A DNA stretch of 64,000 bases from Candidatus Methanoperedenaceae archaeon GB37. Lineage in GTDB: Archaea; Halobacteriota; Methanosarcinia; Methanosarcinales; EX4572-44. The stretch lies in NCBI GenBank assembly GCA_905171695.1, contig LR991653.1, forward strand, positions 1,338,150-1,402,149, read 5' to 3'. Below the pieces are notes generated by a model. The model did not search any database and was not told the DNA's origin. It saw only the letters and a list, made by a program, of their open reading frames with translations. Positions within the stretch are counted from its first letter, which is position 1. Each line of letters opens with the position of its first letter. Below are positions 23,408 through 64,000 of this stretch, piece by piece. The position numbers were made by a program, and so were the translations under genes.

Positions 23408-23762
23408 CCTTGAAGCTACGAGAACCTCCCAGGAAATAATAACGAAGACGGGAGGAAATAGATCCAGTGAGGTTGAAAACCTGATTACTAAGACGCTAGG
23501 GGTTCTTCAGGAGAACGGCATTTATGCATGCACACTCTATCTGAACTCCAGAACGAGTGAAGCGGAGAAGAAGATTGGCCCTGTCATCCACGAGGAACTT
23601 CTTAAAATGACGAAACGACTTGTTAAGACACCAATAAAAAACGATGATTACGAATATCTTACGGACGAAATCTGTTCAGACATTGACCTACTTATACTAA
23701 CAAAACAGCTCTGGGAGCAGACATTGACCTATGCTAGATACGGGGCGAAAGCAAGGACGTGA
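23397..23762 (+). CDS. cmr5: Cmr5-like small subunit (Cas11)
   Basis: About 121 aa and predicted helical (..VENLITKTLGVLQENGIYACTLYLNSR..). It lies between cmr4 and cmr3. The ATG at 23397 overlaps the cmr4 stop region; the track ORF starts at 23376. Confidence 0.6.
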   Translation: MNLDLEATRTSQEIITKTGGNRSSEVENLITKTLGVLQENGIYACTLYLNSRTSEAEKKIGPVIHEELLKMTKRLVKTPIKNDDYEYLTDEICSDIDLLILTKQLWEQTLTYARYGAKART

Positions 23763-23766
23763 TATT

Positions 23767-24660
23767 ATGACATGGACCCCCTATCTTGTAAGTTTCAAAT
23801 TGCGCTCACCAGTTCATATCGGATGGAAAAAAATTGGAAACTTGCAAGTAACACGCCCTTACATTACCGGAAAAACATTATGGGGTGCGCTGACAGCAAG
23901 ACTTGTTAGAGATGAAGGGAATAGCAATTATAGTGAGATTGGAAAACAAGTAGATGATGAATTACGCTTCACTTACTTTTATCCATCAACTAGTCCAGAT
24001 AAGGTCAATCTATGGCCATGGGATAAAAAGAACGAGTTTGCCTGGAAATTTCTGGGTAGTTATATCAGTACTGCAATAGAAGGCGATACCGCCGAGGAAG
24101 GGAGCCTCCATGAGGTTGAGTATATATCCCCAACAACTCGTGATGGAAACCCGGTCTTTCTTGTTGGGTATGTGATTGAAAAGAAGGATTGCCACTTGAA
24201 ATGGAAGGAAGCTTTAAAGCGGATTCAAATTGGCGGTGAGAGAGGATATGGATGGGGACGAACTGAGTTATTGAGCGATCCCAAACCAGTAGAAGAGTGC
24301 TTTGGTTATAGAATCGATAATTCCGAGATTTCTCCAATGATTTCTATTCCCAAAGATAATGTGATTCTTGCACATGCAAAAACCGATTTCCTAAAATGCA
24401 TAGGATATATTGAACCATTTCTGGGGAGAGAAACAAATGATTCGGATGGCGTTGGTGGAAAAATACCGCACCCTATAGGTGGAAAAATACCGCACCCTAT
24501 AGGTGGAAAAATACCGCACCCTATAGGTGGAAAAATACCGCACCCTATAACATGTTACACACCAGGGAGTAAAGTTGTGGCCGATACAACATTCGTTATT
24601 CAACCGAAAGGAGTATGGGAAAAAACGAGGTGCAATAGTTCGGGAGGTTCCAATCCATGA
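23767..24660 (+). CDS. cmr3: Cas5-group RAMP (Cmr3/Csx10-like) with an internal tandem octapeptide repeat
   Basis: MTWTPYLVSFKLRSPVHIGWKKIGNLQVTRPYITGKTLWGALTARLVR..., IGGERGYGWGR glycine-rich loop, then (GGKIPHPI)x4. It is the last gene of the operon. Confidence 0.65.
   Translation: MTWTPYLVSFKLRSPVHIGWKKIGNLQVTRPYITGKTLWGALTARLVRDEGNSNYSEIGKQVDDELRFTYFYPSTSPDKVNLWPWDKKNEFAWKFLGSYISTAIEGDTAEEGSLHEVEYISPTTRDGNPVFLVGYVIEKKDCHLKWKEALKRIQIGGERGYGWGRTELLSDPKPVEECFGYRIDNSEISPMISIPKDNVILAHAKTDFLKCIGYIEPFLGRETNDSDGVGGKIPHPIGGKIPHPIGGKIPHPIGGKIPHPITCYTPGSKVVADTTFVIQPKGVWEKTRCNSSGGSNP
24454..24549 (+). repeat. Perfect 4 x 24-bp in-frame tandem repeat (GGTGGAAAAATACCGCACCCTATA)
   Basis: Read directly: units at 24454-24477, 24478-24501, 24502-24525 and 24526-24549, with no mismatch. 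Each unit encodes GGKIPHPI. Confidence 0.97.
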
Positions 24661-24943: not shown

Positions 24944-25049
24944 GCGAGGGTAACCAAGTCGGCCAAAGGTGCAGGACTTAAGTGGTACTGGTGGTATCGG
25001 AGTTATCCTGTCTCGAAGGAGTTCATGGGTTCAAATCCCATCCCTCGCA
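24944..25049 (+). tRNA. tRNA-Leu (anticodon UAA) with a 22-nt intron after position 37
   Basis: Acceptor GCGAGGG/CCCTCGC; anticodon stem CAGGA (24972-24976)/TCCTG (25006-25010); loop CTTAAG + intron TGGTACTGGTGGTATCGGAGTT (24983-25004) + A; long variable arm; T arm ATGGG-TTCAAAT-CCCAT. No CCA is encoded. Confidence 0.8.
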
Positions 25050-25094
25050 TCAAAAACAGAAAATTTTCTGAATTGTGATGGATGTGGTCTCTTG

Positions 25095-25634
25095 ATGGTT
25101 GACGATGATACTCTCTTTGGCGAGGTTGTTCGGGTGGATGGTGTGAATGTGTATCTTGTGAGGTCGGTCTCTCGGTCTTCTCGTGAGCTTGGTGTTGGCG
25201 AGTTCGTGGGAGTTGAGTGTGGAGGGGATGTTGTGGTCTCTGTTCTCACTGGCGTGGAACGGTCGATACCTGAGGATGTGGTATCGATGATCTCTCTTGA
25301 GATGGAGTCGAAGTATCTCCCTTACAGTTCTGAGCTGGATAGTAGCTATTATCGTCTCTTTGGGCTTGGGCTTCTCTCCCGGAGTGGTGTTCAGCATGGT
25401 CTTCGTGTGGCTCCGCGGCTTCGCAGCAGGGTGTGGCGATTGGATGATGATACGATCAGGAAGTTTCACCTACCTCATGGTCGTGCTAACATCTCTTACT
25501 TCAATCGGTATCGTGAAGCACTCGGGGATGATCTCCTGCTTGCGATCGTTGATGAGCTCTGGGCTCTTCTGCCAGAGGCTCGGAGGATGCTTGCGCCGGT
25601 CAGGAAGTACCTTAAGGGTGGTGGTGCACTCTGA
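25095..25634 (+). CDS. Hypothetical protein resembling a stand-alone HerA-type N-terminal barrel domain
   Basis: From the internal Met (the track ORF start at 24969 lies inside the tRNA). FGEVVRVDGVNVYLV...GEFVGVECGGDVVVSVLTGVER parallels the N-terminal region of the downstream ATPase. Confidence 0.4.
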   Translation: MVDDDTLFGEVVRVDGVNVYLVRSVSRSSRELGVGEFVGVECGGDVVVSVLTGVERSIPEDVVSMISLEMESKYLPYSSELDSSYYRLFGLGLLSRSGVQHGLRVAPRLRSRVWRLDDDTIRKFHLPHGRANISYFNRYREALGDDLLLAIVDELWALLPEARRMLAPVRKYLKGGGAL

Positions 25635-25642
25635 GCGGGTGT

Positions 25643-27223
25643 GTGATCGGGCTTGTCTTGACGCACACGCGTGAGGGCTTCTCTTTTGTAACGAAGTACT
25701 CACTTGCATCTGGCGAGTTTGTCTCTTATCGGTCTGGGAGTGATCGCGTCCTTGCCCGTGTGAGTCATACTGAGCCCTTGCGGGATTATCCTGTGGAGTT
25801 CCTGCTCGATCCCGAGGTTGACGCTGAGGATGTTGCACTCTTTTATGGGCTTGATGCAGATGATTATCGGTTTTATCGTGTGCATGCACGGGTTGTGGGC
25901 TACTTTGACAGGCGGGTTAACGAGTTCATAAACCCGCGTATGATGCCGCTCTCAGGGACGAGGATAGAGCGAGTGGATGAGACGATCCTCTCGGATGTGA
26001 ACCGGGTCTCTGCAGACGAGGTTGGCTCGGCTCACATCGGCACGATACTTGGCACGAAGACCGATGCTGTTCTCTCTGTTCGTGAGATGGTGAGCCAGCA
26101 TCTCTCAATCATCGCTGCAACGGGCGCAGGCAAGTCCTATACCGTTGGCGTGATCGTGGAAGAGTTGATCTCGGCAAAGAACATGGCGTCGGTATTGATC
26201 TTCGATCCACACGGCGAGTACAGTGTGCTAAGCGAGATTCAGAACGATCAGAGCTTCTGGGAAGAGGGGTATCGACCAAGGGTGCGGATCGTTAAGCCGG
26301 ACCAGATAAAGATCAGACTCGGTGATCTCACGCCTGGCGATTTTATCAGTATCATGGACGATGGTAACATGTCAGAGAAGATGAAGACGCTCTTTGTGGA
26401 GGCTTATGAGAGTTTGAAGAGGGATGAGAGGAGCCTCACACGAAGTTTCACCAGGAACGAGCTTCGTGAGACTATTGAGGGCTTAAGTGATGGCAAGAAT
26501 GAGCTGAGCATTGCAGGCCTCCTCTGGCGCTATGATAGGATGGTGCGTGAGAAGATCTTCGATGACTTTCGGAGCATCCCACTCCGCGAGTACTTCCAGC
26601 CAGGGCTTCTCACCATAATGGATGTCTCAGGCATAGGGGAGTGGAAACAGCAGTTGATCGCAACGATTCTCCTCCGCCAGCTCTTCGATTCTCGGGAGGG
26701 CACAGATAATGAGCGTTACAGTGAAGAGTTCCGACCTGAGCGTTATCTACCCTATCCTGTCTTCCTGATACTTGAAGAGGCGCACAGGTTTGCACCGCAG
26801 AGTGGAGATGCGAAATCGAGACAGATACTCAAGAAAATCCTATCAGAGGGTCGAAAATTTGGAATTGGCGTATGCATGGTCTCACAGCGCCCAAGTAAAC
26901 TCGATTCAGATGCGCTCTCTCAGTGTATGACACAGATCACGATGCGAATCATCAATCCAGCAGATCAAAAGCAGATAGGAGAGAGCATCGAGTCGGTGAG
27001 CAGAGACCTGCTCGAAGAGCTACCAGCCCTCACACGGGGGCAGGCGATCGTAAGCGGTGTTGCCATAAACACACCGATCATCGTTGATATCAGAAAGCGG
27101 CGCACAAGAGAGATAGGTGGGACGAGCAAGGACGCACCGCAACTCTGGAGAGAAGAGATGCAAGAGAGGCGATATGAGACGGTGGAGAGACGGCCAAGCT
27201 ACGAACTCGATGTGGGAGTATAA
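25643..27223 (+). CDS. HerA/DUF87-type P-loop ATPase
   Basis: 526 aa with Walker A IIAATGAGKSYTV, Walker B/sensor VFLILEEAHRFAP, and GRKFGIGVCMVSQRPSKLD, typical of HerA/FtsK-like DUF87 ATPases. Confidence 0.75.
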   Translation: MIGLVLTHTREGFSFVTKYSLASGEFVSYRSGSDRVLARVSHTEPLRDYPVEFLLDPEVDAEDVALFYGLDADDYRFYRVHARVVGYFDRRVNEFINPRMMPLSGTRIERVDETILSDVNRVSADEVGSAHIGTILGTKTDAVLSVREMVSQHLSIIAATGAGKSYTVGVIVEELISAKNMASVLIFDPHGEYSVLSEIQNDQSFWEEGYRPRVRIVKPDQIKIRLGDLTPGDFISIMDDGNMSEKMKTLFVEAYESLKRDERSLTRSFTRNELRETIEGLSDGKNELSIAGLLWRYDRMVREKIFDDFRSIPLREYFQPGLLTIMDVSGIGEWKQQLIATILLRQLFDSREGTDNERYSEEFRPERYLPYPVFLILEEAHRFAPQSGDAKSRQILKKILSEGRKFGIGVCMVSQRPSKLDSDALSQCMTQITMRIINPADQKQIGESIESVSRDLLEELPALTRGQAIVSGVAINTPIIVDIRKRRTREIGGTSKDAPQLWREEMQERRYETVERRPSYELDVGV

Positions 27224-50363: not shown

Positions 50364-51480
50364 CTTAGAACTCCTCATTCTACTTTTTTGCAAGTGTTAT
50401 CGATTTTGTTATCTTTTTGAAGGTTTTAGTAATAGTTTCTTTAAGTTCTTTTATATTCAGTGGTGTTTTCTCTGAAATTGCTCTTTTAGCACTCTTCTAG
50501 ACGTTTTCAATCGGATTTAGATTAGGTGAGTGAGGGGGGGATAAACCAGTGAAATGTTCGGTTTCTCGGCTTCTTTCTTTATCTTCCTGGTATGTTGTGT
50601 TCTGAGGTTGTTCGGGGTGATTACAATTCTCTTTTTTCAGGTTTTGCTTCCCTTATCTTTCTGGGAAAAGAGACGCGGAGTCTTCAGCCTTGCTGCTCTT
50701 GGGAGACTCTATTGAGCTTTCTCTGTTCAAGGTGTAGAATCCTGTAACTTTGGTTTTGATGTATGTAGCAACTCTTTTAACTGGTTTTCCGAAGCTTCAC
50801 AGCCTTGCTCTGTTTGCGTTCGCTTCGACTGCCATCTTATCGATGAATCCTATTTACGTCATCCTCGATTTCAGCGTCGTCAAGGGTTTTTAAAGTGTCT
50901 TCTGCATTATCTGGCTTCCTGTAATCCTTCTGGTACGGTTTGGCGTATCTCATTCCAAACGATTTTAGAATTCTTCTGACCTGCCACGAAGAATAGCTAA
51001 CTCCAAATTCTGCTTCAATGAGCTCTTGAACTTCCTTCGTTGTCCAGGAATCCTTTTTCTTGAGCATTTCTCTGAGTTCTTCCTTCTGCTCTTCTGTAAG
51101 TTTAGAGGGTCTACTTCCTCCATAGTTCGGTTTTAAGCCTTCGTAACCGCTAGAATTCCACCTTTTAAACCATGCATAGCCCGTTGCTTTAGTGACCCCA
51201 ACCAGTTCAGCAACTTCCTCAACACTCATCACTCTGTAGAGATATCTTATAAAGTATAATCTTTTGAGAACTCCTGTATCCTTTTCGAGCCTCTTGATCC
51301 TTTTGTCGAGTTCTTCTGCTGGTATGCGTTTTGCAACTTCGTAGACTCGCTTTCTGCCCACATATTTTGTTGCTTTGTTTTAGTATAAATAGCTCTGCTC
51401 AAGACCATAATTTGAAGTTTCATACAATTAATATATTAATGAATATTAGTGAATCCAACACATTTTATAAATATATTTAA
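50364..51480 (-). mobile_element. Degraded IS630-family element
   Basis: ORF 50837-51361(-) encodes only the N-terminal HTH part of an IS630 transposase (..MSVEEVAELVGVTKATGYAWFKRWNSSGYEGLKPNYGGSRPSKLTEEQKEEL...WTTKEVQELIEAEFGVSYS.WQVRRILKSFGMRYAKP). The region 50364-50836, where the DDE domain should be, has no long ORF. The ends are not defined. Confidence 0.6.
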
Positions 51481-51524: not shown

Positions 51525-52214
51525 GCCGCTCTGAGCCTCCACTGGCGAGCACGATGCTCAAGGCAGTCTCGCTCGCACGCAGCATTCTGCCTTCAAGAGC
51601 TGAGAGAGACAAGTGTCGATGGAGTCATACTTGTTGACAACCAGTTCCTGAAACAGGCAGGAAAGGACATCAAAACTGCCTACGACAGCATAAACAGGAT
51701 GGTTGCAGATCGCTTCCTCTTCTTGATCCGCGCACTCGACAGTGAGATGATGATGGTAACAGACCTTGGAGACTTCAACACCCTGATGGCAAGCGGAGCC
51801 AGACTCGCGACCTTCGGATTCGCAAAAGGAGGGAAGAATCAGAGCATAAAAGACGTAATCAAAGAGAGCATGTCACCAAGAGGACTCCTCTTCTCAACGC
51901 AACCATACGAAGAAGCAGTGCGAGCAATGATAATCATACAGGGCGACAAAAAATACCTCGATATAAACGAGATCACGAGCGAAGTCGAGACACTCTCGAG
52001 CAATGTGGGACACGTCTTCAAAGGCGTACTCATACGAAACCGAGAAGAACCACAAGTCCTGACCATATTCTCACTATCAGCATCAGAAGAACTCGACAAA
52101 TTCTACCTTGAAGCAATCGAAGCCATCAAAAAAGAGAAAGAACAGAAAGAAAGAACAAAAAGCCAGAAAGAAGTAGCAAACGACCTGCTCAAAGGAATGG
52201 AACCAGAATACTGA
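51525..52214 (+). pseudogene. 5'-truncated tubulin/FtsZ-family (CetZ-like) gene remnant
   Basis: The open frame from 51525 reads ...VDGVILVDNQFLKQAGKDIKTAYDSINRMVADRFLFLIRAL...DLGDFNTLMASGARLATFGFAKGG...PRGLLFST.PYEEAVRAMIIIQGDKKYLDINEITSEVETL... This is the C-terminal half of an FtsZ/CetZ fold. The GTP-binding N-terminal half is absent. Confidence 0.5.
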
Positions 52215-52319: not shown

Positions 52320-54209
52320 ATGATAGAAGCAATCAAACAAATCGGGGAATATGCGATAGGGAGAGAAGGGAAGAGTGTTGACGATCCCCTTGACATTCTT
52401 GTGGATAGTCCTGCAAATAGAGATACAAAAAATGTGTTGTTTATTGTTCTTAAATGTGAGGGAGATGGTTTTAGTTATAAAGGTGTGGATGTTGAAGAAT
52501 ATTCAAAATATGATAAAGAAAAATATCTATATAAAAAGGGCAACCCAAGGGGTACGGACATCACACCAACTGCAATGATAACTGATGTGAAAAAAACGTT
52601 TGGAAATAAAATATTGAACTGGTTTAAAAATTATGATGAAATTGGATTGGATGAAAATCAAAATTTCTTGGTCAAAATCGGTAATTGTATTAGAAATAAT
52701 AGTGAACAGATATTAAAGGACCTAGAAGAAAAGCAGAGCAAGGAAAACAATATTATTAGCTTGAGGATCGACAATAAATATCTATATGATTTTAAGATAT
52801 TTCACGATATATTATTAGATAAAGCAAAAGAAAATTTTTATTCAAAATATGGTAAAATATCAAAATCTGAAAATCAGATATGTTCGGTTTGCAATGAAAG
52901 AAAGGCGGAAGTCTATGGTTTTGTGGATACATACAAGTTCTACACCGTCGACAAACGAGGTTTTGTAAGCGGGGGATTTCAGCAGAAGAATGCATGGAAG
53001 AACTATCCTGTGTGTTTAAATTGTGCACTAACACTTGAAGAAGGTAAAAAATATTTGCAGAATAATCTTAAATTTAATTTTTATGGTTTTAATTATCTTT
53101 TAATTCCTAAATTTTTAAATAATGTAGATAAATCAGTACAAGAAGACATTTTCAAAAGAATAGAAGAGCAAAATGACCCAAAATTCAGGAAAAAAGAGAT
53201 AAACAGGCTAACAGCCGATGAAAATGAAATATTAGAATCAATGAGTGAACAAAAGAACTATTTAAATCTGAATTTTATGTTCTACGACGCTCCTAAGGGA
53301 GATAATGGCTCCGTTTTTAACATATTATTATACATTGAAGATATTCTGCCATCGAGGTTGAAGACCTTATTCAACGCAAAAGTAGGTTGTGCAGAGGAGA
53401 ATATAATTGGAGTTGACCAGATTCAGATCTTTCAAGAATGCATGGTGTCTACGTTTGAAAATAAGAAAAAAACTGGAGAAAAGCCACTGGAGTTTAATTT
53501 TGGAATTTTAAGAACGTTTTTCCCAAAAACTAGCAATAATGGAACTTATGATAAGTATTTTTTAGATATCACAAATAAAATTTTCACAAATAAAACAATA
53601 GATTATTATTTCTTATTGAATTTTATTATGGAGAAAATAAGAGATGAGTTTGCCAATGGTTACCCAACTAAGGTTTCAACATTGAAAGGATTCATGTTAT
53701 TAAACTATTTAAATAAATTAAAGTTAGTGAATCTTGGTGAGGAGAGAGAAATGGATGAGAACAGATTAAACATGTTTGAAAAAAGCGTTTCAAAGGAAGT
53801 AACGGATTTAGATCAAAAAATTGATACATTTTTTAATGAGTTTTCAGATTTCTTTAAGAGTGATGCAAAAAAAGCAATATTTCTTGAAGGAGTTTTGACA
53901 CAATTCCTGCTAAATATTCAATATCAGGAACGAAACGCCACCCCTTTTAGAGTGAAGCTGAAAGGGCTGAAGTTAGATGAAAAACAAGTCAAAAAACTTC
54001 TTCCAGAAATACAAAACAAGCTTGAAGAGTATGGAAAGAATTATTATAGAAATTTGGAATCGATTATTTCGAAATATCTCGTATCTGCAGGAGATGAATG
54101 GAATATGAGCAACGATGAAATAAGTTACTATTTTGTGCTTGGAATGAATCTTTCTTATTTATTTAAGAAAGAAAATCAGGATAATGAGATAGGTGATGAA
54201 AATGAGTGA
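52320..54209 (+). CDS. cas8b: Cas8b large subunit (type I-B, TM1802-like)
   Basis: 629 aa with MIEAIKQIGEYAI... and the zinc-ribbon-like CSVCNERKAEVYGF...KNYPVCLNC. It is followed directly by cas7-cas5-cas3. Confidence 0.75.
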   Translation: MIEAIKQIGEYAIGREGKSVDDPLDILVDSPANRDTKNVLFIVLKCEGDGFSYKGVDVEEYSKYDKEKYLYKKGNPRGTDITPTAMITDVKKTFGNKILNWFKNYDEIGLDENQNFLVKIGNCIRNNSEQILKDLEEKQSKENNIISLRIDNKYLYDFKIFHDILLDKAKENFYSKYGKISKSENQICSVCNERKAEVYGFVDTYKFYTVDKRGFVSGGFQQKNAWKNYPVCLNCALTLEEGKKYLQNNLKFNFYGFNYLLIPKFLNNVDKSVQEDIFKRIEEQNDPKFRKKEINRLTADENEILESMSEQKNYLNLNFMFYDAPKGDNGSVFNILLYIEDILPSRLKTLFNAKVGCAEENIIGVDQIQIFQECMVSTFENKKKTGEKPLEFNFGILRTFFPKTSNNGTYDKYFLDITNKIFTNKTIDYYFLLNFIMEKIRDEFANGYPTKVSTLKGFMLLNYLNKLKLVNLGEEREMDENRLNMFEKSVSKEVTDLDQKIDTFFNEFSDFFKSDAKKAIFLEGVLTQFLLNIQYQERNATPFRVKLKGLKLDEKQVKKLLPEIQNKLEEYGKNYYRNLESIISKYLVSAGDEWNMSNDEISYYFVLGMNLSYLFKKENQDNEIGDENE

Positions 54210-55182
54210 GATTATAGGAAACAGGTCAGAGTTGGTATTTCTGTATGATATAAAAGATGCAAATCCAAACGGCGACCCATTGGATGAGAACAAGCCAAGA
54301 ATAGATGAAGAAACTGGGATAAATGTCGTAACAGACGTTCGACTGAAAAGGACAATACGAGATTATCTCATGAATTTTAAAAATCAGGAGATATTTGTTA
54401 GAGAGATAACAGATGATGAAGGCAATATCCAAGACGCCAAACTAAGAGCAAAAGATTTTTTAAATGGTGTATCTGACTTGGAGAGTAAGGGCTTTAATGA
54501 GCAAAAAGAGATAATCAAAAACAAAATAATCAGTACCTGTATTGATGTGCGTCTATTCGGAGCTACAATACCTCTTGATTTGACAATAAAAGACGGGAAG
54601 AAGTTAAAAAGTGTTACAGGGTCCATCACTCTCACAGGTCCTGTTCAATTCAGAATGGGCAGGTCATTGCACAGAGTTGAGATGAAGCATATTAAAGGTA
54701 CTGGTGCCTTTGCATCGAAAGCAGGAGCAACTCAAAAAACCTTCAGAGAAGAAGACATATTACCGTATTCATTAATTTGTTTCTACGGCATCATTAACGA
54801 AAATGCAGCAAAACACACAGGATTAACAGAAGAAGATGTCAAACTACTTTTAGAAGGAATGTGGAACGGCACTAAAAATCTGATTTCACGAAGCAAAGCG
54901 GGTCAAATGTCGAGATTGCTTTTGAAAGTGAACTATAGAGAGAACGGATATCACATAGGTGATCTTGACAAACTCATCAGGATAAAAGATATTGAAAAAA
55001 TAAATCAGGAGAGTATACGTGATATTTCTGAAATTGAACTGGATGCAAGCGAACTTGTTGAAACATTGAATCGTAATAGAGATAAAATTGAAAGTGTTGG
55101 GATAAAAAGGGATGATAGAGTGAAGATCGATTTAAGTTGGTTGGACAGCACTATTCGACAAAACGAGATAATCTTTGAATAG
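54196..55182 (+). CDS. cas7: Cas7 (type I-B, Csh2/CT1132-like)
   Basis: LVFLYDIKDANPNGDPLDENKPRIDEETGINVVTDVRLKRTIRDYL is the canonical Cas7 N-terminal block. The start overlaps the cas8b stop (alternatives are 54193 GTG and 54202 ATG). Confidence 0.9.
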   Translation: MKMSEIIGNRSELVFLYDIKDANPNGDPLDENKPRIDEETGINVVTDVRLKRTIRDYLMNFKNQEIFVREITDDEGNIQDAKLRAKDFLNGVSDLESKGFNEQKEIIKNKIISTCIDVRLFGATIPLDLTIKDGKKLKSVTGSITLTGPVQFRMGRSLHRVEMKHIKGTGAFASKAGATQKTFREEDILPYSLICFYGIINENAAKHTGLTEEDVKLLLEGMWNGTKNLISRSKAGQMSRLLLKVNYRENGYHIGDLDKLIRIKDIEKINQESIRDISEIELDASELVETLNRNRDKIESVGIKRDDRVKIDLSWLDSTIRQNEIIFE

Positions 55183-55185
55183 AAT

Positions 55186-55950
55186 ATGAATCCAGAGCAA
55201 AGGATAGACAAATTGTTAGTATTTGATGTGTGGGGAGACTATGCTCATTTTAGACGATTCTATACTACTACGTCTCCGCTCACTTTTACTGTCCCTCCAC
55301 GAACTGCATTATGTGGCTTAATTGGTGCAATGATTGGATTGGAAAAAGAGAACAATGAGTATCTAAAATATTTCACTACGGACAAGGCATACATCGGTTT
55401 AAAGCTGCTAACTCCAGTAAAAAAAGTAATTATTGCTGAAAATTTGATACACACAAAGAATGCAAAGGGCATTGGGATGAACTTGATAACTGAAAGAACT
55501 CAGATAAATTTTGAGTTCTTGAAAGACCCAAGATATAGAGTTTATTTTTACCACGCGGATAAAGAGATATATCAACAGCTGAGAGAAAACTTAGAAGCTC
55601 ATAAATCTGTATACACGCCGTGTCTTGGTTTAAGTGAGAACATAGCGAACTTTGTGTTTGTTGGTGAAGTTGAAGCTAAAACTAACTCAAGTATCGATGA
55701 ATATGTTCAAATTGATTCCGTATTGCCGTCTGAAAAAATTGTTTGCGAGAAGGGTATCAATTTTAATTTAGATGGAGAATTTTTTTCAATGAAAGTTCCA
55801 ATAGAGTTGAATTTAGAAAGGGTTGTTACAAAGTATAGTGATCTTTTGTTTGAGAGAAATGGCAAACGGATTGAAGTTAAATTAGCAGAACCTTATTGGA
55901 CTATAGATTATGGAACTGGAACACAGGAAAATATCGTCTTCATCGAATGA
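55186..55950 (+). CDS. cas5: Cas5 (type I-B)
   Basis: LVFDVWGDYAHFRRFYTTTSPLTFTVPPRTALCGLIGAMIGL is the canonical Cas5 N-terminal block. Confidence 0.9.
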   Translation: MNPEQRIDKLLVFDVWGDYAHFRRFYTTTSPLTFTVPPRTALCGLIGAMIGLEKENNEYLKYFTTDKAYIGLKLLTPVKKVIIAENLIHTKNAKGIGMNLITERTQINFEFLKDPRYRVYFYHADKEIYQQLRENLEAHKSVYTPCLGLSENIANFVFVGEVEAKTNSSIDEYVQIDSVLPSEKIVCEKGINFNLDGEFFSMKVPIELNLERVVTKYSDLLFERNGKRIEVKLAEPYWTIDYGTGTQENIVFIE

Positions 55951-58378
55951 GCTTAAATCGCATCCAGATAAGCATTTAATGGAACACTTATCAAATGTGG
56001 GAGCACTGTGTAAAGAGATCATATCATCGAAAAAGTTGAGCATGGATGAATATGTGGATTTTGACGTGCTCCAAGATGTGGCTTATCTGGTTGGAATAAG
56101 TCATGACTTCGGTAAAGCAACGTCTTTTTTTCAGAAATATATTAATGAAACAGATGAATTGAAAAGGATTAAACTAAAAAATAAACCAGAAACGTATCAT
56201 GGATTTCTTTCATCCCTTTTTACGTATTATGTTATAAAAGAGTATCTTTCCTCTAAAAACTTACAGGAGAGGAGATATTTAAAATATCTTCCTATAATAT
56301 GCTTTTTGATTGTTAAACGGCACCATGGGAATTTACATGATGCATTGGATGAAACCAGTGATTTTGGCGAGGCTGATAAAGCGATTTTAGAAAAACAAGT
56401 TGAGTCCATTGATTTTAATAAAATAAACGATATTTATAATGTGTTGTTCTTAAAGGTGCAGTTTAATTTTGATTGTAACTTCTTTCGAGATAAAATTTTG
56501 AATTCAAAACCGATCTATGTTTATGGGAAGCTTAAAGGACATAAGAAACATTACATGCATGATGTTGGAGGTGAGGGGAGGAGGTTGGTTAGGAATATAG
56601 ATGAAGAGCGCAGTTTGTTTTATTATTTTATAGCTTTGTTTTTGTATTCAGTACTTTTAGATGCTGACAAAACAGACGCTGCGAATTTAAAGCCAGTTAG
56701 AAGAAAAGATGTATCCAATGATATAGTTGATAATTATAAAAAATCCAGATTTAAAGAAAATGAGAGTAAGATGAACAGAATGAGAGAGGAGATCTATGAG
56801 GAAGTTATGAGCAACCTTAAAAATATTAATTTAGATAGAGATAAGATTTTATCGCTGAATGTTCCAACTGGTACTGGAAAAACACTTACCTCTCTGTCTT
56901 TTGCTTTAAAAATAAGGAAACGAATCGAGTATGAGAAGGGATATTCGCCACGGATTATTTACTCACTTCCTTTTTTGAGCATTATTGATCAAAATTATGA
57001 TGTTTTCAATGAGGTTTTAGGAAATCCAACCACAGATATACTTTTAAAACATCACCATTTATCAGACGTGCTTTATACAACAGAAGAAGACGAATTTGAT
57101 AGTATAGATAGCGATGTTGGAAAGGACGTTCTTTTAATCGAGGGATGGAATTCAGAGATTATTGTTACAACTTTTATACAATTTTTTCATTCGCTAATAT
57201 CAAATAAAAACAGGTCGATAAGAAAGATTTATAACATCGTAAACAGCATTGTTATATTAGACGAAGTTCAAGCTATTCCACACAAATACTGGTTGTTGTT
57301 AAATAAAACAATTAATTTTCTTGCAAATCATTTTAACACATATTTTATTTTTATTACAGCCACGCAGCCTTTGATTTTTAACGAAAAGAAAAATGAAATA
57401 AAAGAATTAGTAAAGAACAAGGAAAAATATTTTAGAGAACTTGATAGAGTTAAATTACATGTGGTTTTAGAGCCTATTTTAATTGAAAGCTTCAAAGAGG
57501 TCTTAAAAAAAGATTTAATAGAGAATGAAAACAAAGATTTTTTAATTGTTTTGAATACTATTAACTCGTCAAAAGACGTTTATGAGTTTGTTAAGGAGTT
57601 GAATATTAAAGATTCCAAAATATATTATTTATCTACAAATATTGTTCCAAAGAGTAGATTAAAAAGAATTAAAGAGATAAAGAAAGAAACGAAAGAGAGA
57701 AAAATCATAGTAAGTACCCAGCTTATAGAAGCGGGTGTAGATATGGATGTCGATATTGTTTATAGAGACTTTGCACCCCTTGATTCCATAAATCAGGTTG
57801 CAGGTAGATGTAACAGAAACTTTAGAGATACAAAAGGTATTGTTAAAATTTTTGTTTTAAAAGAAGAAAATAGAGAATATTACAAACATATCTATGGAAC
57901 ATTTTTACCCTCTAAAACAGAAAATGTCCTCAAAGACAAAAACAAAATAAACGAATCTGAATTTTTAAAAATAAATGAAAAATACTTTGAAAAAATAGAT
58001 ATTGAAAAAAGTGACGATGAATCAATGAGTATTTTAGAAACACTTGAAAAATTGAAATTTGAAGATTTATCCAAATTTAAATTAATAAAAGAGGATTATT
58101 TCAAGGTTGACGTGTTCATTGAACTTGATGATTATGCAAAATCTGTGTGGAGAAAATATTGTGAAATAAAAGAGCTTCCACCGTTTGAGCGCAGGAAGGA
58201 GTTTTTGAAGATTAAAAAGGATTTTTATGATTATGTGATTTCTGTTCCAAAAAATTATGCGGCTGGTTTTGAAGAGGGAGAAATAAATCACGTTTCAAAA
58301 GAGGAATTATCTAATTACTATGATGCTGAAACCGGTTTCAAACGAGAGACTGCAGGAGAGGGGGTGCTGATCTGTTAG
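55910..58378 (+). CDS. cas3: Cas3 (HD nuclease fused to SF2 helicase)
   Basis: 822 aa with HD motif GISHDFGKATSFFQ, helicase motif I LNVPTGTGKT, motif II VILDEVQ, and later STQLIEAGVDMD. The only in-frame ATG preceding the conserved SHPDKHLMEHL is at 55910 (41-nt overlap with cas5). Confidence 0.9.
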   Translation: MELEHRKISSSSNELKSHPDKHLMEHLSNVGALCKEIISSKKLSMDEYVDFDVLQDVAYLVGISHDFGKATSFFQKYINETDELKRIKLKNKPETYHGFLSSLFTYYVIKEYLSSKNLQERRYLKYLPIICFLIVKRHHGNLHDALDETSDFGEADKAILEKQVESIDFNKINDIYNVLFLKVQFNFDCNFFRDKILNSKPIYVYGKLKGHKKHYMHDVGGEGRRLVRNIDEERSLFYYFIALFLYSVLLDADKTDAANLKPVRRKDVSNDIVDNYKKSRFKENESKMNRMREEIYEEVMSNLKNINLDRDKILSLNVPTGTGKTLTSLSFALKIRKRIEYEKGYSPRIIYSLPFLSIIDQNYDVFNEVLGNPTTDILLKHHHLSDVLYTTEEDEFDSIDSDVGKDVLLIEGWNSEIIVTTFIQFFHSLISNKNRSIRKIYNIVNSIVILDEVQAIPHKYWLLLNKTINFLANHFNTYFIFITATQPLIFNEKKNEIKELVKNKEKYFRELDRVKLHVVLEPILIESFKEVLKKDLIENENKDFLIVLNTINSSKDVYEFVKELNIKDSKIYYLSTNIVPKSRLKRIKEIKKETKERKIIVSTQLIEAGVDMDVDIVYRDFAPLDSINQVAGRCNRNFRDTKGIVKIFVLKEENREYYKHIYGTFLPSKTENVLKDKNKINESEFLKINEKYFEKIDIEKSDDESMSILETLEKLKFEDLSKFKLIKEDYFKVDVFIELDDYAKSVWRKYCEIKELPPFERRKEFLKIKKDFYDYVISVPKNYAAGFEEGEINHVSKEELSNYYDAETGFKRETAGEGVLIC

Positions 58379-58548
58379 GAAGACACCGTCTCGCTCACAA
58401 TCCTATGAAATCAGTTTGAATGAGGAACAGTATACAAGAATACTGGAGAAGAGAGAAGTTATGGACGAAGTAGGAACGATCGTATTCGGACTCGATTGCG
58501 TGAGTGCGTCTTACGTCTTCGGCTATCAATCTCCAAAGGACTGAAACC

Positions 58549-59214
58549 ATGCCCCTTGAAACTCTCACTCTGACCCTCACATCCTCCCGCCCGGTCAGAG
58601 AGACAGGGGTTCAGCTCCGCGGCTTCTTTGCAACCAAGTTCACAGAGTATGAGCTCCTGCACCAGCACGTGGATGCGGGCAGACTCGTCTACCAGTACCC
58701 GAAGATCCAGTACAAGGTGATCGATGGCACTCCGATGGTGATCGGGATAAACGAGGGTGCAGAGGTATTAAAGGAGCTATACGACCAGTACGATAGAATA
58801 ACGCTTGGAGATAATACCTACGAGATTGTTGAGAGAAATATAACTCTGCGAGAGGAAGCTTTTGGTATCTCGCATCAGATTTTGAGTTATCGATTTATTA
58901 CGCCGTGGCTTGCACTGAATCAGAGGAATTATGAACGGTATTTTAGATTGGATTGGTCTAAGCAGAAGAATTTGCTGCGCAGAACGCTTGTTGGTAATAT
59001 ACTTTCGATGGCAAAGGGGCTGGATTATGTCGTGACCTCACATATAAAACTGGATATTGGTAGAGTGCGGCATAGGATGTGCACTGTTAAGGGTGTGAAC
59101 ATGCTTGGAATTGAATGCGATTTTATGGTGAACTTTGCAATTCCTGACTATCTCGGGCTTGGTAAGTCGGTATCGAGGGGGTTTGGGGCGGTTGTGAAGG
59201 TGAAGAATCTTTGA
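58549..59214 (+). CDS. cas6: Cas6 crRNA endoribonuclease
   Basis: From the internal Met: MPLETLTLTLTSSRPVRETGVQLRGFFATKF...YPKIQYKVIDG... and the C-terminal glycine-rich loop GLGKSVSRGFGAV. Its composition is noticeably more GC-rich than the flanking cas genes. Confidence 0.8.
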   Translation: MPLETLTLTLTSSRPVRETGVQLRGFFATKFTEYELLHQHVDAGRLVYQYPKIQYKVIDGTPMVIGINEGAEVLKELYDQYDRITLGDNTYEIVERNITLREEAFGISHQILSYRFITPWLALNQRNYERYFRLDWSKQKNLLRRTLVGNILSMAKGLDYVVTSHIKLDIGRVRHRMCTVKGVNMLGIECDFMVNFAIPDYLGLGKSVSRGFGAVVKVKNL

Positions 59215-59290: not shown

Positions 59291-61324
59291 ATGAGCGATG
59301 ATCTGGTTCCAGAGCTGCATGATATAGGGAAGATGGTTGATGAGTCGTTGATGAACGAAGACGGGCACACTTTTCGTCGTATAGACGATCGCTACAAGAA
59401 TAGAATAAAAGATAATAAAAATTGGGTTGGTATAAAATTTCATACAGGCGGAAAGACTCCAAATGAATACAAAGGAGACATGGATCTCTTTTTGCTTAAG
59501 TTATCGGATCACATGGCATCTGCCGTGTCGAGAATGCTACCTAAAAAAGAGGCGAATCAAGCCAAGGATCAAGCCAAAACACAAAACAAAACACAAAGAA
59601 GTGATAAAAAGCGGAGAAAATCGAGTATCTGCAAATTATGGTGGGAAAATGAAGCCGAGACGGAATTGATCTCGGATGATAAGGAATTCTTAGAATTAAT
59701 TGATTTTGTAAATAATTACTCGTCTAACGACGGTACTAAATATTTTGAAAAATACGGTAAAAGATTAAAAGAATGTCCAGAAGATAAATTTCCGGGATTA
59801 AATATCATATCTCTCTTTACACATTCAAAACTTGTTGGCAAGTTTTATAGATTCTTCAAGAAGTACGGGGACGATATCAAGGATAATGGAACAACTCTCG
59901 GAGAGGTATATGAAATAAAGAAAGCAGAGAATAATTTTACAATAAAACTCGTTCACGGAAAAATTAAATTTCATTTATCGCCTGTTCGAGCAGGAGATTT
60001 GAATATCTTCAATGTTAAAGAACGAATTGTAGAGTTTTTAAAGCAAAGAGATGAGATTTTGTTTTGCACTCAAGATGAATTTCTGGCAATTCTTCCAGTG
60101 AATAAAGATATAACGAGTATTTTTGAAAAAATAGAAGAAAACCTATACTTTGATGTAGAAGAGGCAGAAGCGGTGTTATATGAGGTATATCCCACTCCAC
60201 TGGCGATGAAAAGCAGATTTGAAAGAACAAATTCAAAAGGATTTAGGGTTCGTGAAAAATTTAACTATGCTGAAAAGTTGATATATTTCGATTTATCTCC
60301 GCAGATACATGATATCTGCGACCTCTGCCAGATGTATGAGGCAACAAAGGAATTTCCAAGAGATTATGTTTACGAGCATCTTTGTGAGAAATGTAGAACT
60401 GCTGTGAGAAATGAAGAATACCCGTTTCCTTTAGATAAAATCTGTGAGAGTTGCAAGAACAAAAACGAAAAATGGTTAGAGGAGACTATTTCTGAAAAAT
60501 TATGCATACACTGCTTTAATTTAAGAGAAGAAGAGCCTCGTGCACCAAAAATTGTAGAATGGTCTGAATCAGATGAAGATTTTAAGGTTGCGTGGGTCAA
60601 AATAAGTCTGGACATCGAAGAACTCCAGAAAATTTTGGAAAAACTGTATGAAGAATATCTAAATCTAAATGAAAAAGAGTTTGAAAAGAGCAGGGAAGGA
60701 GAGATAAGATTTTCTGTTCTTTCTGAGTTCCAGAGTGATTTTGAGAATTTCCTGGGAGATTTGATGAGAAAGAGAGAAGATGATGGGGAGATAGAGGGGT
60801 TGCTTGCAGATAAATTTGGAATTGCAAATTGTCAGTGGATTCTGTCAGATCTTTTCTGCGTCAGGATAGAGAGTCTGGCTGACATAACAGAAATTTTGGA
60901 AATCTACAACAAGCTCTTCAATGGATATTTCCCAAAGTTCAAAAAGGTAGCTTCGCCAATAAAACTCTCAATCTCCTACTCCAGCATAAAGTTCGCATTC
61001 TTCTGGCACTGGAGGTTTCTGGATAACCCAGTGAATGATGTCAATGTAAATCTCGTGGGCAAAGGCGAGATGCATCTGGATCTGGAACAGTTAGATAATA
61101 TCCTTGAATTGAATGAAATCTCTGTAGCTCAACTTCATAAGTTGGCAAAGATATCAGAAGTATCTAAAGAACTATCAAAGATCTTACTGTATCATAAAGG
61201 CGAGTGGAGGTTAGTCAAAAAAGAAGATTATGAAAAACTGAAGAAATTTACCTCAGCAGTTGGTTTTGAGAATATCTTGACCTATGCAAAGATGATACGC
61301 GATCAGGAGCAGTTGGTTGAATGA
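59291..61324 (+). CDS. cas10: Short Cas10-like large subunit (HD domain, four CxxC pairs, no GGDD)
   Basis: 677 aa with HD motif PELHDIGK at residues 7-14 and the Cys cluster CDLCQ..CEKC..CESC..CIHC. The palm-like segments read ILFCTQDEFLAILP and WILSDLFCVRIE, followed about 45 aa later by KLSISYSSIKF (the usual position of the SxGI block). Confidence 0.65.
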   Translation: MSDDLVPELHDIGKMVDESLMNEDGHTFRRIDDRYKNRIKDNKNWVGIKFHTGGKTPNEYKGDMDLFLLKLSDHMASAVSRMLPKKEANQAKDQAKTQNKTQRSDKKRRKSSICKLWWENEAETELISDDKEFLELIDFVNNYSSNDGTKYFEKYGKRLKECPEDKFPGLNIISLFTHSKLVGKFYRFFKKYGDDIKDNGTTLGEVYEIKKAENNFTIKLVHGKIKFHLSPVRAGDLNIFNVKERIVEFLKQRDEILFCTQDEFLAILPVNKDITSIFEKIEENLYFDVEEAEAVLYEVYPTPLAMKSRFERTNSKGFRVREKFNYAEKLIYFDLSPQIHDICDLCQMYEATKEFPRDYVYEHLCEKCRTAVRNEEYPFPLDKICESCKNKNEKWLEETISEKLCIHCFNLREEEPRAPKIVEWSESDEDFKVAWVKISLDIEELQKILEKLYEEYLNLNEKEFEKSREGEIRFSVLSEFQSDFENFLGDLMRKREDDGEIEGLLADKFGIANCQWILSDLFCVRIESLADITEILEIYNKLFNGYFPKFKKVASPIKLSISYSSIKFAFFWHWRFLDNPVNDVNVNLVGKGEMHLDLEQLDNILELNEISVAQLHKLAKISEVSKELSKILLYHKGEWRLVKKEDYEKLKKFTSAVGFENILTYAKMIRDQEQLVE

Positions 61325-62052
61325 ATTTTATTGAATACACGCTCACATCGGATATGCTCTGTATGGGCGAACGGATAAAGAAGGGGCAGTTCAGACCGAC
61401 AGTCACAACAATCCCTTATAGCCAGATTACTGGCGCCTTAAAGGCGGTTTTTGGAGATAAGGATATTCACGCCGTTGGTTACTTTCCTTTTGAGAATGAG
61501 CAGGAGTTTAGAAGAAGGCATGTGCAAATATTAACGTATTCACCGAGGGACAGGGCAATCAACACGAGCATCATTCCACTGTATATTGAATACCTGAGGG
61601 ATGTTAAAGGGAGGGTGTTTATCGCAGCGACAGATGATATCAGAGACGCCCTTAAAAATGAGTCAATTTCCATTTATATGGATATGGGTGCTTTCAAATC
61701 TAAAGGGTTCGGGGGGTGTACATTGAAAAAGTGCAGAGAGATAGGTGAAGAAGATTTGGAGATTCGAGAAGGGTTATTGAATACCAGAATTCCAATAGCA
61801 AAGGCAAAAGAGATGAATGGAATGGATGGCAAGTCTCAAAAGAGGTTGATAGACGAAGGGGGGACGACTGAATTCCTGAAAAATACATTCGGTATCGAAA
61901 AGGTTGTAAAGGCACGATATGGTTACCTCTTTGAGCCGACGAGTAAAACATCCGGGTGGTACGTGCTATCACTCTTTGAGGGAAGCGTGATAAAAGGACC
62001 GGAATTTCTGTTGAAGGATTATGATAGAGGTGATGGGAATGATACTCAATAA
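61321..62052 (+). CDS. Cas5-group RAMP (Csm4/Cmr3-like)
   Basis: 243 aa with ...TTIPYSQITGALKAVFG... and the glycine-rich GAFKSKGFGG. It overlaps the cas10-like gene by 4 nt. Confidence 0.55.
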   Translation: MNFIEYTLTSDMLCMGERIKKGQFRPTVTTIPYSQITGALKAVFGDKDIHAVGYFPFENEQEFRRRHVQILTYSPRDRAINTSIIPLYIEYLRDVKGRVFIAATDDIRDALKNESISIYMDMGAFKSKGFGGCTLKKCREIGEEDLEIREGLLNTRIPIAKAKEMNGMDGKSQKRLIDEGGTTEFLKNTFGIEKVVKARYGYLFEPTSKTSGWYVLSLFEGSVIKGPEFLLKDYDRGDGNDTQ

Positions 62053-62638
62053 CGTCGATGAATTTGTTAAGGAAATATTGAATGACCGGAGGATATTTTT
62101 TTATTCTCATGGAGCGGAACTATTTAACAAAGCGGAAATGGATAATCTGAAGAAAAAATATGAAAATAATAAGGCAGATTTTATCAAAAAGATCAAAGAT
62201 AAAATTGAGCAAGTTAATGAGGAGATAGAACATCTGAAAAAGCAAAAAAATAACAGACTGAAGAAAAGAATAGAGAATAGACAAAGATGTGTAAAACTTG
62301 CAGAATCGATGATTCGGGCGGTCACAGATACGTCAAATTCTTTAGAAGAACTAATAGAAACGTTCGATGACCTGGGGATATTATCAAGTAATCTAGCGCC
62401 AAAACATTTAGAAGATATTGGCCAATTGATAGAAGAGACCGAGAGAAATATCGTGAAAGAATTTATTTTGTATAAAGCTCAAAAAGAGGGAGATAAACGT
62501 AAAAGGGAGGCACTAATGGTTTTGTGGAATTATGTAGATCAACTATATGGAATGAATTTATCCCTACCTGAAAAGGGATTTGTAATAAGAAAAATAAATG
62601 CATTTAAGTTACTCCCTGAGGTGATAAACCATGAATAA
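62021..62638 (+). CDS. Putative small subunit (Cas11-like), helical K/E-rich protein
   Basis: Assigned by position between the Cas5-like and Cas7-like genes, by size (about 200 aa) and by helical/coiled-coil character only. The start may be 62033 or 62039. Confidence 0.35.
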   Translation: MIEVMGMILNNVDEFVKEILNDRRIFFYSHGAELFNKAEMDNLKKKYENNKADFIKKIKDKIEQVNEEIEHLKKQKNNRLKKRIENRQRCVKLAESMIRAVTDTSNSLEELIETFDDLGILSSNLAPKHLEDIGQLIEETERNIVKEFILYKAQKEGDKRKREALMVLWNYVDQLYGMNLSLPEKGFVIRKINAFKLLPEVINHE

Positions 62639-63488
62639 GTTTGAAACTCTTGCAGATATTGGAACAACCGAACAGATCGGCAGAATTAAGAGGCTTAATG
62701 TGGGCATAGTTGTGAAGGTTGAAGATGCGTCTTTCTTGCACATTGGGGGAAGTCCTACGCCATTGACAGATAAGAAAGCACCAATATTCATGATTGGTGA
62801 CCAGCCAGCGATCCCCGCATCGAGTTTCAAAGGGGCATTCCGAAATAAAGTAGAAGCCTACTTAATAGAACACCAAGACGAGATTAAAACGATTTTCAGA
62901 GTGGAAGATGCAAAGTGTTTGATGCCATGCATTCCCGCATCAAAACCCACCGCCGCAGAAAAATCTTTCTTGACCAACAAAGCTGTTTACAGAGAGAAAA
63001 ACTGCGAAGTGAAAGTGGACGAAAATACGATCAAATTCCCAAATAGTGGGATATGCCCAGTCTGTTATTTATTTGGTGCCAATGGCATAATGGGTTTCCT
63101 GCGAATACCCAACTTTCTACCAATAACGAAAGGGCTTAGCAAATTGGAACAAACTCAGATAGGAATTGACAGGAAAACAGGAACTGCTCGCCACGGAGCA
63201 ATTGTTCGCGGAGATCAGGTTTTACCGGGAACAAAATTCGTTGGTAAACTTGAAATTCTATTGAATGATGGTAATTTTGAATTTGGTGTACCGAGAAAGA
63301 TAGGCGAGAATAATAAACAAGTATTGGATACGTGGCTAAACAACACTGAAATAGAAGATCTTAATGAAATCCAGATTAAGATTATCGATAACTTGATACT
63401 AAGACCATTAAAAGAGTTGGATCGTCTTGGTGGTCAGAAATCCAAAGGTGCGGGGAAAGTAAAAATAACAGTCGGAGCGCCTCCATGA
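62631..63488 (+). CDS. Cas7-group RAMP (Csm3/Cmr4-like), the single backbone subunit of the minimal type III module
   Basis: 285 aa with LHIGGSPTP...QPAIPASSFKGAFRNKVEAYL, CPVCYLFGANG, IGIDRKTGTARHGAIVRGDQVLPGTKF and the C-terminal LGGQKSKGAGKV. Confidence 0.75.
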   Translation: MNKFETLADIGTTEQIGRIKRLNVGIVVKVEDASFLHIGGSPTPLTDKKAPIFMIGDQPAIPASSFKGAFRNKVEAYLIEHQDEIKTIFRVEDAKCLMPCIPASKPTAAEKSFLTNKAVYREKNCEVKVDENTIKFPNSGICPVCYLFGANGIMGFLRIPNFLPITKGLSKLEQTQIGIDRKTGTARHGAIVRGDQVLPGTKFVGKLEILLNDGNFEFGVPRKIGENNKQVLDTWLNNTEIEDLNEIQIKIIDNLILRPLKELDRLGGQKSKGAGKVKITVGAPP

Positions 63489-63586: not shown

Positions 63587-64000
63587 ATGCATATGCAACT
63601 CGTAATCAACACCCGCGGATCATACCTGAGAAAGAAAGAGAACCGCTTTCTTGTCAGGAACGAGGAGAAGGTCTTTGAGATATCGGTGAATAAGGTTGAT
63701 AGCATACTGATTACGACATCTGCGTACATCTCGACCGACGCAGTCAAGTTCGCTGTAGATAACAACATCGATATAGTCTTCCTTGACAACTTTGGTGATC
63801 CTTTCGGCAGAGTCTGGCACAGTAAACTCGGTAGCACGACTCTTATCAGAAGGCGTCAGCTTGAGACCTCCAGCACGGCAAGAGGGTTTAACATGGCGAA
63901 GGGATGGGTGGAGATAAAGATCGATAATCAGATCACCTTTCTGAAGGACCTCAAGAAGAACCGTCCAGAGAGGAGGGGAGAGATCGAGTCTCACATCAGA
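63587..64000 (+). CDS. cas1: Cas1 integrase, N-terminal part (runs off the window end)
   Basis: Not in the ORF track (open at the edge). My own translation gives MHMQLVINTRGSYLRKKENRFLVRNEEKVFEISVNKVDSILITTSAYISTDAVKFAVDNNIDIVFLDNFGDPFGRVWHSKLGSTTLIRRRQLE..., the canonical Cas1 N-terminal domain. Confidence 0.85.
   Translation, partial: MHMQLVINTRGSYLRKKENRFLVRNEEKVFEISVNKVDSILITTSAYISTDAVKFAVDNNIDIVFLDNFGDPFGRVWHSKLGSTTLIRRRQLETSSTARGFNMAKGWVEIKIDNQITFLKDLKKNRPERRGEIESHIR

Follow-up and report, generated by a model that had tools for sequence, protein, structure and literature searches.

Near the end of a 64-kb stretch of DNA (hereafter the window) from Candidatus Methanoperedenaceae archaeon GB37 (contig LR991653.1, positions 1,338,150 to 1,402,149), four co-directional open reading frames (ORFs) form a minimal type III CRISPR-Cas module. 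In window coordinates, in which the four genes, like the I-B genes, cas6b and cas1 around them, lie on the + strand, these are cas10f (59291-61324, 677 amino acids), encoding the Cas10 large subunit; cas5f (61321-62052, 243 amino acids), encoding a Cas5-group RAMP protein that partners Cas10 and would hold the 5' handle of the CRISPR RNA (crRNA); a long form of cas11f (62021-62638, 205 amino acids, or 199 from a start at 62039), encoding the small subunit; and cas7f (62631-63488, 285 amino acids), encoding the sole Cas7 backbone subunit of the module. Each start overlaps the preceding stop, an arrangement as in a translationally coupled operon. A first-pass annotation, made from the sequence alone, had delimited the same four-gene module, and the ORF list agrees with it exactly; the motifs that it had quoted (PELHDIGK, four CxxC pairs, WILSDLFCV, CPVCYLFG and IGIDRKTGTA) are all present. 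With profile E-values from 1e-22 to 1e-103 and ratios of non-synonymous to synonymous substitution (dN/dS) of 0.12-0.30, the four ORFs are not a chance occurrence. The module is a previously undescribed and unannotated example of the already described subtype III-F, not a new system, and its complex would be built from Cas10f, Cas5f, Cas11f and multiple copies of a single Cas7f.

Pfam and NCBIfam recognise almost nothing of the module, Cas7f alone being matched (Pfam RAMPs, 6.9e-15; NCBIfam Csx7, 2.3e-19, under the Csx7 cut-off). PADLOC holds subtype-level Cas profiles, and III-F profiles are the best matches for all four proteins: Cas10a/Cas10f for the 677-residue protein (E = 3.5e-103, 345 bits), Cas5_IIIf for the 243-residue protein (1.2e-52, 177 bits; the profile Cas5 (CAS-III-A) also matches, at 2.6e-51), the Cas11f profile PDLC01223 ('CAS-III-F; effector_SS') for the 205-residue protein (1.1e-22, 79 bits) and Cas7_IIIf for the 285-residue protein (1.9e-68, 229 bits; runner-up Csm3, 7.7e-21). 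These confident assignments bear out the composition that had been suspected at first sight, cas10-cas5-cas11-single cas7. III-F-labelled profiles are also the best matches for relatives from three sub-branches. In CRISPRCasTyper the presence of the III-F small subunit is what distinguishes III-F from III-A, and this marker was detected in the window. We file the module under III-F because it has a separate III-F-type cas11, because its scores on III-F profiles are high, and because of the CRISPRCasTyper rule. Three other assignments were rejected: III-A, on profile scores, the missing GGDD motif, the lack of a matched CARF gene and the presence of one Cas7 gene only; type I-D, on profile scores and gene content, there being no match to Cas10d; and type IV, there being no match to Csf1 and typeIV_Cas7 reaching 3.3e-5 versus 1.9e-68 for Cas7_IIIf.

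The first-pass annotation had allowed for an outcome in which the 677-residue protein would find no support as a Cas10; the fold is supported by both modelling and structure searches. An AlphaFold2 (AF2) model built on 20 homologues reached a predicted local distance difference test score (pLDDT) of 85.3 and a predicted template modelling score (pTM) of 0.87, and in a Foldseek search of this model against the PDB, III-A Csm1/Cas10 structures filled ranks 1-46 of the top 50 (lowest E-value 4.6e-12, with a probability of 1.0). The Cas10f family profile also finds Streptococcus thermophilus Csm1 by sequence, placing LHDIGK on LHDIGK. The domains run from HD through a degenerate Palm1, a zinc finger and Palm2 to a helical C-terminal domain of about 80 residues (598-677). 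In the HD domain, which carries PELHDIGK at residues 7-14, the residues H10, D11, K14, H26, H51 and D73 are invariant in a 20-sequence alignment; family-wide, 58 of 59 members retain each of H10, D11 and K14, and all 59 retain D73. The four CxxC pairs lie at 343 (CDLC), 365 (CEKC), 385 (CESC) and 405 (CIHC). Outermost among them, C343/C346/C405/C408 make up the core zinc finger, with C343, C346 and C408 invariant and C405 present in 54 of the 59 members; the nested inner CxxC...CxxC (365-388) is an insertion missing in about three quarters of members.

A cyclase motif of the form GGD[DE] occurs in none of the 59 Cas10f family members, anywhere in the sequence. In the AF2 model, a Palm2 hairpin (strands E514-518 and E521-526) has its turn at S519-D520 and reads L-S-D-L, within the WILSDLFCV motif at 516-524; this turn is expected to take the place of the GGDD turn of active Cas10, an inferred equivalence. 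The alignments thus agree with the initial description of a Cas10 with an HD motif and without a cyclase motif: in Cas10f the cyclase site has been lost and the HD nuclease motif retained, and the family-wide conservation of the latter argues for an intrinsic nuclease. No match to CARF, SAVED, Csm6 or Csx1 was obtained among the window ORFs scanned with Pfam, NCBIfam and PADLOC, a scan that did not take in every small ORF.

The 205-residue protein had been described as showing no recognisable Cas11 motif, a statement that does not hold: its match to PDLC01223 spans residues 10-202 and positions 3-166 of the 167 in the profile, while its residues 116-196 are also hit by the short profile, PDLC01224. 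In more distant relatives, the protein encoded between cas5 and cas7 has just some 90-120 residues and matches PDLC01224 with an E-value of 2.9e-33. An hhalign comparison of long (6 sequences) and short (10 sequences) Cas11f aligned the C-terminal ~70 residues with 92.2% probability (E = 5.9e-7), and the first helix is visibly common to both forms (VDEFVKEILNDRRI versus VDELIEKIRNDRDV). Because the long and short profiles align C-terminally and the first helix is shared, we interpret the 205-residue protein as a long Cas11f, in which a short III-F Cas11 core is interrupted by a coiled-coil insertion of about 100 residues, rich in lysine and glutamate. Coiled-coil Pfam hits of this protein (SWI-SNF_Ssr4_C and others) were set aside as compositional noise, caused by the composition of this insertion. 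Its homologues begin at Met7 (62039), and the reference gene in Ca. Methanoperedenaceae archaeon GB50 is also called as 199 amino acids, so that the true start of cas11f is probably Met7, giving a gene of 62039-62638.

As for the two RAMP proteins, a cas5f orthologue directly follows cas10f in every locus that reaches past cas10f. Cas7f, with CPVCYLFG at position 142 and IGIDRKTGTA at 177, has its best PDB sequence matches in the III-D Cas7 paralogues of 8bmw, TDNP aligning with KKAP, and by alignment its Lys49 stands at the canonical catalytic aspartate of the Csm3-type D-[NS]-P-[IV] loop. Of 17 members of the branch with a long Cas11f, 16 have lysine here; of 14 with a short Cas11f, 9 keep the aspartate. 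Because lysine replaces the catalytic aspartate, Cas7f of the long-Cas11f branch probably does not cut target RNA. Cysteines 100, 125, 142 and 145 (PCIP, xC and CPxCY) are conserved across the whole Cas7f family and probably bind zinc; their pattern resembles the zinc knuckle of III-D and III-E Cas7 domains.

The module lies within a type I-B locus, whose genes were identified from Pfam, NCBIfam and PADLOC matches. The I-B effector set is complete and lies upstream of the III-F module on the same strand, comprising cas8b (52320-54209; Cas_TM1802, 8.2e-170), cas7b (54193-55182; Csh2, 1.1e-90), cas5b (55186-55950; Cas5b, 9.6e-46) and cas3 (55910-58378; Cas3b, 2.8e-244). It is followed by cas6b (58504-59214; Cas6b_N, 2.7e-33, and Cas6b_C, 1.3e-41, in Pfam; Cas6, 7.4e-82, in PADLOC), which encodes the repeat-cutting endoribonuclease and ends upstream of cas10f with a gap of 77 nt. 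On the other side, cas1 starts 98 nt downstream of cas7f; the gene is cut at the window end, leaving a translation of its N-terminal 138 codons (63587-64000), and its orthologue at the GB50 locus matches Pfam Cas_Cas1. A repeat search found no CRISPR array in the 64-kb window. The last 14.7 kb of the window share 98.4% DNA identity with LR991654.1 of GB50 (locus L001), where cas2, cas4 and then an array with 78 repeats come after cas1; the repeat, GTTGCAGAGCAACATCCACTAAAACAAGGATTGAAAC, ends in ATTGAAAC. Since cas6b lies directly upstream of the III-F module, and cas1-cas2-cas4 and the 78-repeat array lie downstream in GB50, Cas6b is likely to supply crRNAs to both the I-B and the III-F complexes. 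The host is an ethane-oxidising archaeon of the GoM-Arc1, Methanoperedenaceae GB50 lineage; a gene for an archaeal TATA-binding protein in another part of the window is in keeping with an archaeal host. Just 5' of cas8b, an ORF of 171 amino acids (51699-52214) is kept in L001 and in a sister GB50 assembly (L002); it matches nothing in Pfam or PADLOC and may be a locus-specific regulator or accessory gene.

An exhaustive profile search of 1.84 billion representative proteins returned 327 clusters at E <= 1e-3, 218 of them at E <= 1e-30. In a word-indexed protein database, a renewed search with a profile of 59 sequences added nothing to the hits obtained there before. Those family members that carry a source name are all annotated as 'hypothetical protein' and come from metagenome-assembled genomes (MAGs) of archaea and bacteria. 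We compared gene neighbourhoods in a Cas10f-anchored set (25 distinct loci) and in a scan of metagenome contigs anchored on the long Cas11f (22 further loci, long branch). The order cas10f-cas5f-(cas11f)-cas7f is constant in the loci examined, and Cas11f takes three forms: short, long as in the window, and fused to Cas5f in Methanoperedens. This fusion protein has 339 amino acids (L010, 2529-3548; L015, 12019-13038), with the Cas11f profile matching at residues 253-338, and the resulting three-gene module is followed by cas6b.

I-B effector genes stand beside the III-F module in 10 of the 25 distinct loci and in three of the 22 from the metagenome scan (L036, L044 and L054), L036 and L054 repeating the architectures of L013 and L019. 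The point of insertion varies: between cas6b and cas1 in the window; ahead of cas1-cas2-cas4 and the I-B genes in L031; directly after cas3 in the Bacteroidota loci L013/L036; between cas5b and cas3 in L019, L021 and L054; with cas10f directly after cas5b in the contig-truncated loci L017 and L027; after cas1 in L014; and divergent from the I-B operon in L044. A cas6 gene directly adjoins the III-F module in L009, L010, L011, L015, L031, L033 and L053; some loci have only cas6 and/or adaptation genes, and the module of L003 stands alone. Long-Cas11f modules with no type I genes nearby were found in L039/40 and L049/50 (both in restriction-modification contexts), in L046 (no cas genes nearby) and in L053 (cas6 and adaptation genes only); the idea that long-Cas11f modules always sit in I-B loci was accordingly rejected, the metagenome scan having found modules that are restriction-modification-adjacent or devoid of cas neighbours.

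In L049 (2298-8279) and L050 (193-8735), the long-Cas11f module lies between a type III restriction-modification methyltransferase gene (641 amino acids) and an 847-amino-acid Res-like gene, the methyltransferase stop overlapping the cas10f start, with no cas6, cas1 or array on the contig. Locus L005 (7309-18657) is an autonomous III-F locus: it has cas4, cas1, the four-gene III-F module, cas2 and an array of 56 repeats (GCTTAAATCAGACTATTTTAGGATTGAAAT), and type I genes are absent within 10 kb. It is an exception to the statement that most III-F loci are without arrays. The ending ATTGAAA[CT] recurs in arrays that neighbour other III-F loci.

An I-B context is therefore frequent for III-F, being neither exceptional nor obligatory. 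The first-pass annotation had thought the embedding unusual and had raised the possibility of a distinct lineage or new variant, to be given up if all four proteins fell into a described subtype with the same locus context. In essence this is what we found: the profiles put all four proteins in III-F, and the I-B embedding recurs in archaeal and bacterial loci. Its III-F reading is thus supported and its new-variant suggestion is unsupported; the only mildly novel element is the sub-branch with a long Cas11f and a Cas7f that has lost the aspartate.

Taken together, we consider it likely, with good confidence, that the four genes encode a III-F effector of the long-Cas11f branch that adds a further interference module to a composite I-B/III-F locus and would work as follows. 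Cas6b would cut transcripts of the shared array into crRNAs with the 8-nt AUUGAAAC 5' handle, which would be loaded into both the I-B Cascade and the III-F complex. In the latter, Cas10f and Cas5f would cap the handle, with copies of Cas7f forming the backbone and Cas11f the minor filament. The complex would pair with an invader transcript, and where no anti-tag matches the handle, the HD domain of Cas10f would be activated to cut single-stranded DNA at the site of transcription; no cyclic oligoadenylate (cOA) or other second messenger would be made. In the long-Cas11f branch the bound RNA would probably be left uncut, and switching off would then proceed via release of the RNA or through host RNases. 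The predicted outcome is a transcription-dependent DNA interference, independent of the protospacer adjacent motif (PAM), that would back up PAM-dependent I-B/Cas3 interference with the same spacers; because these spacers are common to both, the III-F module would cover PAM and seed escape mutants.

Several points weigh against this interpretation. The prototype of III-F is Tlet_0097-0100 of Thermotoga lettingae, and the membership of the window module is drawn from profile labels and gene composition. Every step of the mechanism is an analogy with III-A and III-B, the sharing of crRNAs between the I-B and III-F complexes is read from gene order, and biochemical or experimental work on any III-F system was not found in the literature searched. 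For Cas11f, the AF2 model is all-helical at a pLDDT of 63 (from a 7-sequence alignment), and Foldseek gave no usable fold match. The apparent aspartate loss of Cas7f comes from alignment, and another Cas7f residue may take over catalysis. Lastly, a III-C module in the same window complicates the division of labour.

This III-C set is complete (17438-24660: cmr1, cmr6, cas10c, cmr4, cmr5 and cmr3), so that the host bears I-B, III-F and III-C within 64 kb. Its cas10c encodes 895 amino acids (PADLOC Cas10c, 742 bits), and cmr3 contains a perfect in-frame tandem repeat of 24 bp x4 (24454-24549), encoding GGKIPHPI x4 near the C-terminus. An ORF for a 221-amino-acid protein of unknown type and a HerA helicase gene follow the set (24969-27223).

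Compared with the orthologous locus L031, dN/dS lies at 0.12-0.30 for the four III-F genes, with similar values for the neighbouring I-B genes, and the III-F genes are under purifying selection. Their history is not uniform. In L002 (10001-12136), Cas10f is 32-58% identical to that of the window over residues 1-350 and 85-98% identical over residues 351-677, and the genes flanking cas10f are 95-99% identical, which suggests that the nuclease half of Cas10f (HD and Palm1) has been swapped by recombination between sister genomes. Between the window (62039-63488) and L031 (4928-6380), synonymous divergence (dS) is 0.24 for cas11f and 0.13 for cas7f, versus about 1 for the other genes, which points to a recent exchange of the cas11f-cas7f segment only. 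GC content is 0.30-0.36 in the I-B effector genes, 0.47 in cas6b and cas1, and 0.33-0.43 in the III-F genes; over the window as a whole it varies from 0.30 to 0.52. Four tandem copies of a 15-bp repeat (5774-5833) lie beside DDE transposase fragments, and insertion-sequence-type transposase and helix-turn-helix genes are scattered over the window (5909-7729, 11120-11641 and 50837-51361), suggesting a mobile-element-rich, mosaic region.

A conceivable but doubtful reading is that the long-Cas11f branch is a distinct functional variant, marked by the coiled-coil insertion of Cas11f, the lysine at the Cas7 aspartate position in 16 of 17 members and the dead cyclase. It would be a type III complex with neither signalling nor RNA cleavage that has come to travel regularly inside I-B operons, possibly relying on I-B parts (Cas6b, the array and perhaps Cas3) for full function.

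That the module belongs to III-H, or to an undescribed subtype near III-H, seems to us unlikely. III-H was defined in the 2025 classification update as a distant relative of III-F, with a representative from Ca. Argoarchaeum ethanivorans (PMC12669027), and we take the type III subtype reported in 2023, with Cas10, a single Cas7 and Cas5 (PMC10910872), to be the later-named III-H. The representative (AEth_01085) comes from a relative of the window host, and the window family has the same taxonomic flavour; like the module studied here, III-H combines a Cas10 whose HD domain is active and whose cyclase is dead with one Cas7 that has lost the catalytic aspartate, it is predicted to target DNA, and most of its hosts are archaea represented by MAGs. 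The C-terminal helical domain of the window Cas10 is also short, at about 80 residues. The HD domain, dead cyclase and aspartate-less Cas7 do not discriminate, however, because they are common to this III-F branch. What separates the two is that III-H was modelled with no small subunit of its own and is said to have a diverged Cas11 in place of the C-terminal domain of Cas10 and to lack adaptation modules (PMC12669027), whereas the window has a separate cas11f that matches the III-F Cas11 profile and a neighbouring cas1, followed by cas2 and cas4 in L001; formally, these adjoining adaptation genes could be part of the I-B system. Moreover, Cas10, Cas5 and Cas7 of the window score 177-345 bits on III-F-named profiles, which is hardly distant, and no protein named after Argoarchaeum appeared among the homologues found.

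It is also quite improbable that the long-Cas11f branch is a distinct variant whose dependence on I-B goes beyond the sharing of crRNAs, for example by handing targets to Cas3 or regulating I-B rather than acting as an autonomous HD DNase. The module does sit within or directly next to I-B genes in L019, L021, L054, L017, L027, L013/L036 and the window, the Cas7f aspartate is lost in 16 of 17 branch members, and the coiled-coil insertion unique to this Cas11f could be a docking surface; yet the family-wide HD motif argues for a nuclease of its own, long-Cas11f modules exist without type I genes (L039/40, L049/50, L046 and L053), and nothing at all points to a contact with Cas3. Finally, that the module is a decaying or silent remnant carried in the I-B locus is highly improbable. 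For it speak the loss of both the cyclase and the catalytic residue of Cas7, a GC content of the III-F genes unlike that of flanking cas genes, and the mosaic alleles. Against it, all four ORFs are intact and their starts and stops are coupled, dN/dS is 0.12-0.30, the HD, zinc and RAMP motifs are kept across the 327-cluster family, and the four-gene order is the same in dozens of loci.

For III-F as we read it, the locus offers a clean and complete example under selection, from a host that is held in laboratory enrichment with a closed genome; with its own Cas6b, adaptation module and large array, it is a practical starting point for tests of III-F. Two questions become testable: whether a cell can be protected by an HD-only type III complex, which would make no cOA and probably cleave no RNA, and how III-F splits work with the I-B Cascade and Cas3 on the same spacers. 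The conceptual gain is small, because the III-F subtype and the idea of hybrid loci have already been described; the practical gain lies in annotation, public records still labelling these proteins as hypothetical.

Among known systems, described III-F loci are the closest: they have the HD domain, a dead cyclase and no cOA effectors (PMC11229360), and the module shares with them the gene set, the single Cas7, the HD domain with a dead cyclase, and the lack of cOA effectors seen. It differs in its Cas11f of about 200 residues with a coiled-coil insertion and in the lysine at the Cas7 aspartate position. Moreover, III-F loci have mostly been drawn without arrays (PMC12669027), whereas the window module lies in an I-B operon accompanied by Cas6b, adaptation genes and a large array. 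With the III-A Csm complexes of S. thermophilus, S. epidermidis and L. lactis (Csm1-Csm5), the module has in common the LHDIGK motif of Csm1, the protein structurally closest to Cas10f, as well as a Cas5f that matches a profile formerly labelled III-A; the logic of an RNA-activated HD single-stranded DNase would be expected in both. In contrast to III-A, the module has no GGDD motif, no Csm6/CARF match and no second Cas7 of the Csm5 type, Cas7f of this branch is without the catalytic aspartate of Csm3, and the C-terminal domain of Cas10f is much shorter.

Finally, hybrid loci, in which several interference modules are served by one adaptation cassette and a type III effector uses the array, Cas6 and adaptation genes of a type I system as well, are recognised as common, examples being I-A/I-B/III-B in Pyrococcus furiosus and I-F/III-B in Marinomonas. 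The locus described here likewise combines two interference modules with one adaptation cassette and one array, whose repeat end, ATTGAAAC, gives the universal 8-nt handle of both complex types. Here, however, the type III partner is a cOA-less III-F system, placed inside the I-B operon itself rather than in a neighbouring operon.

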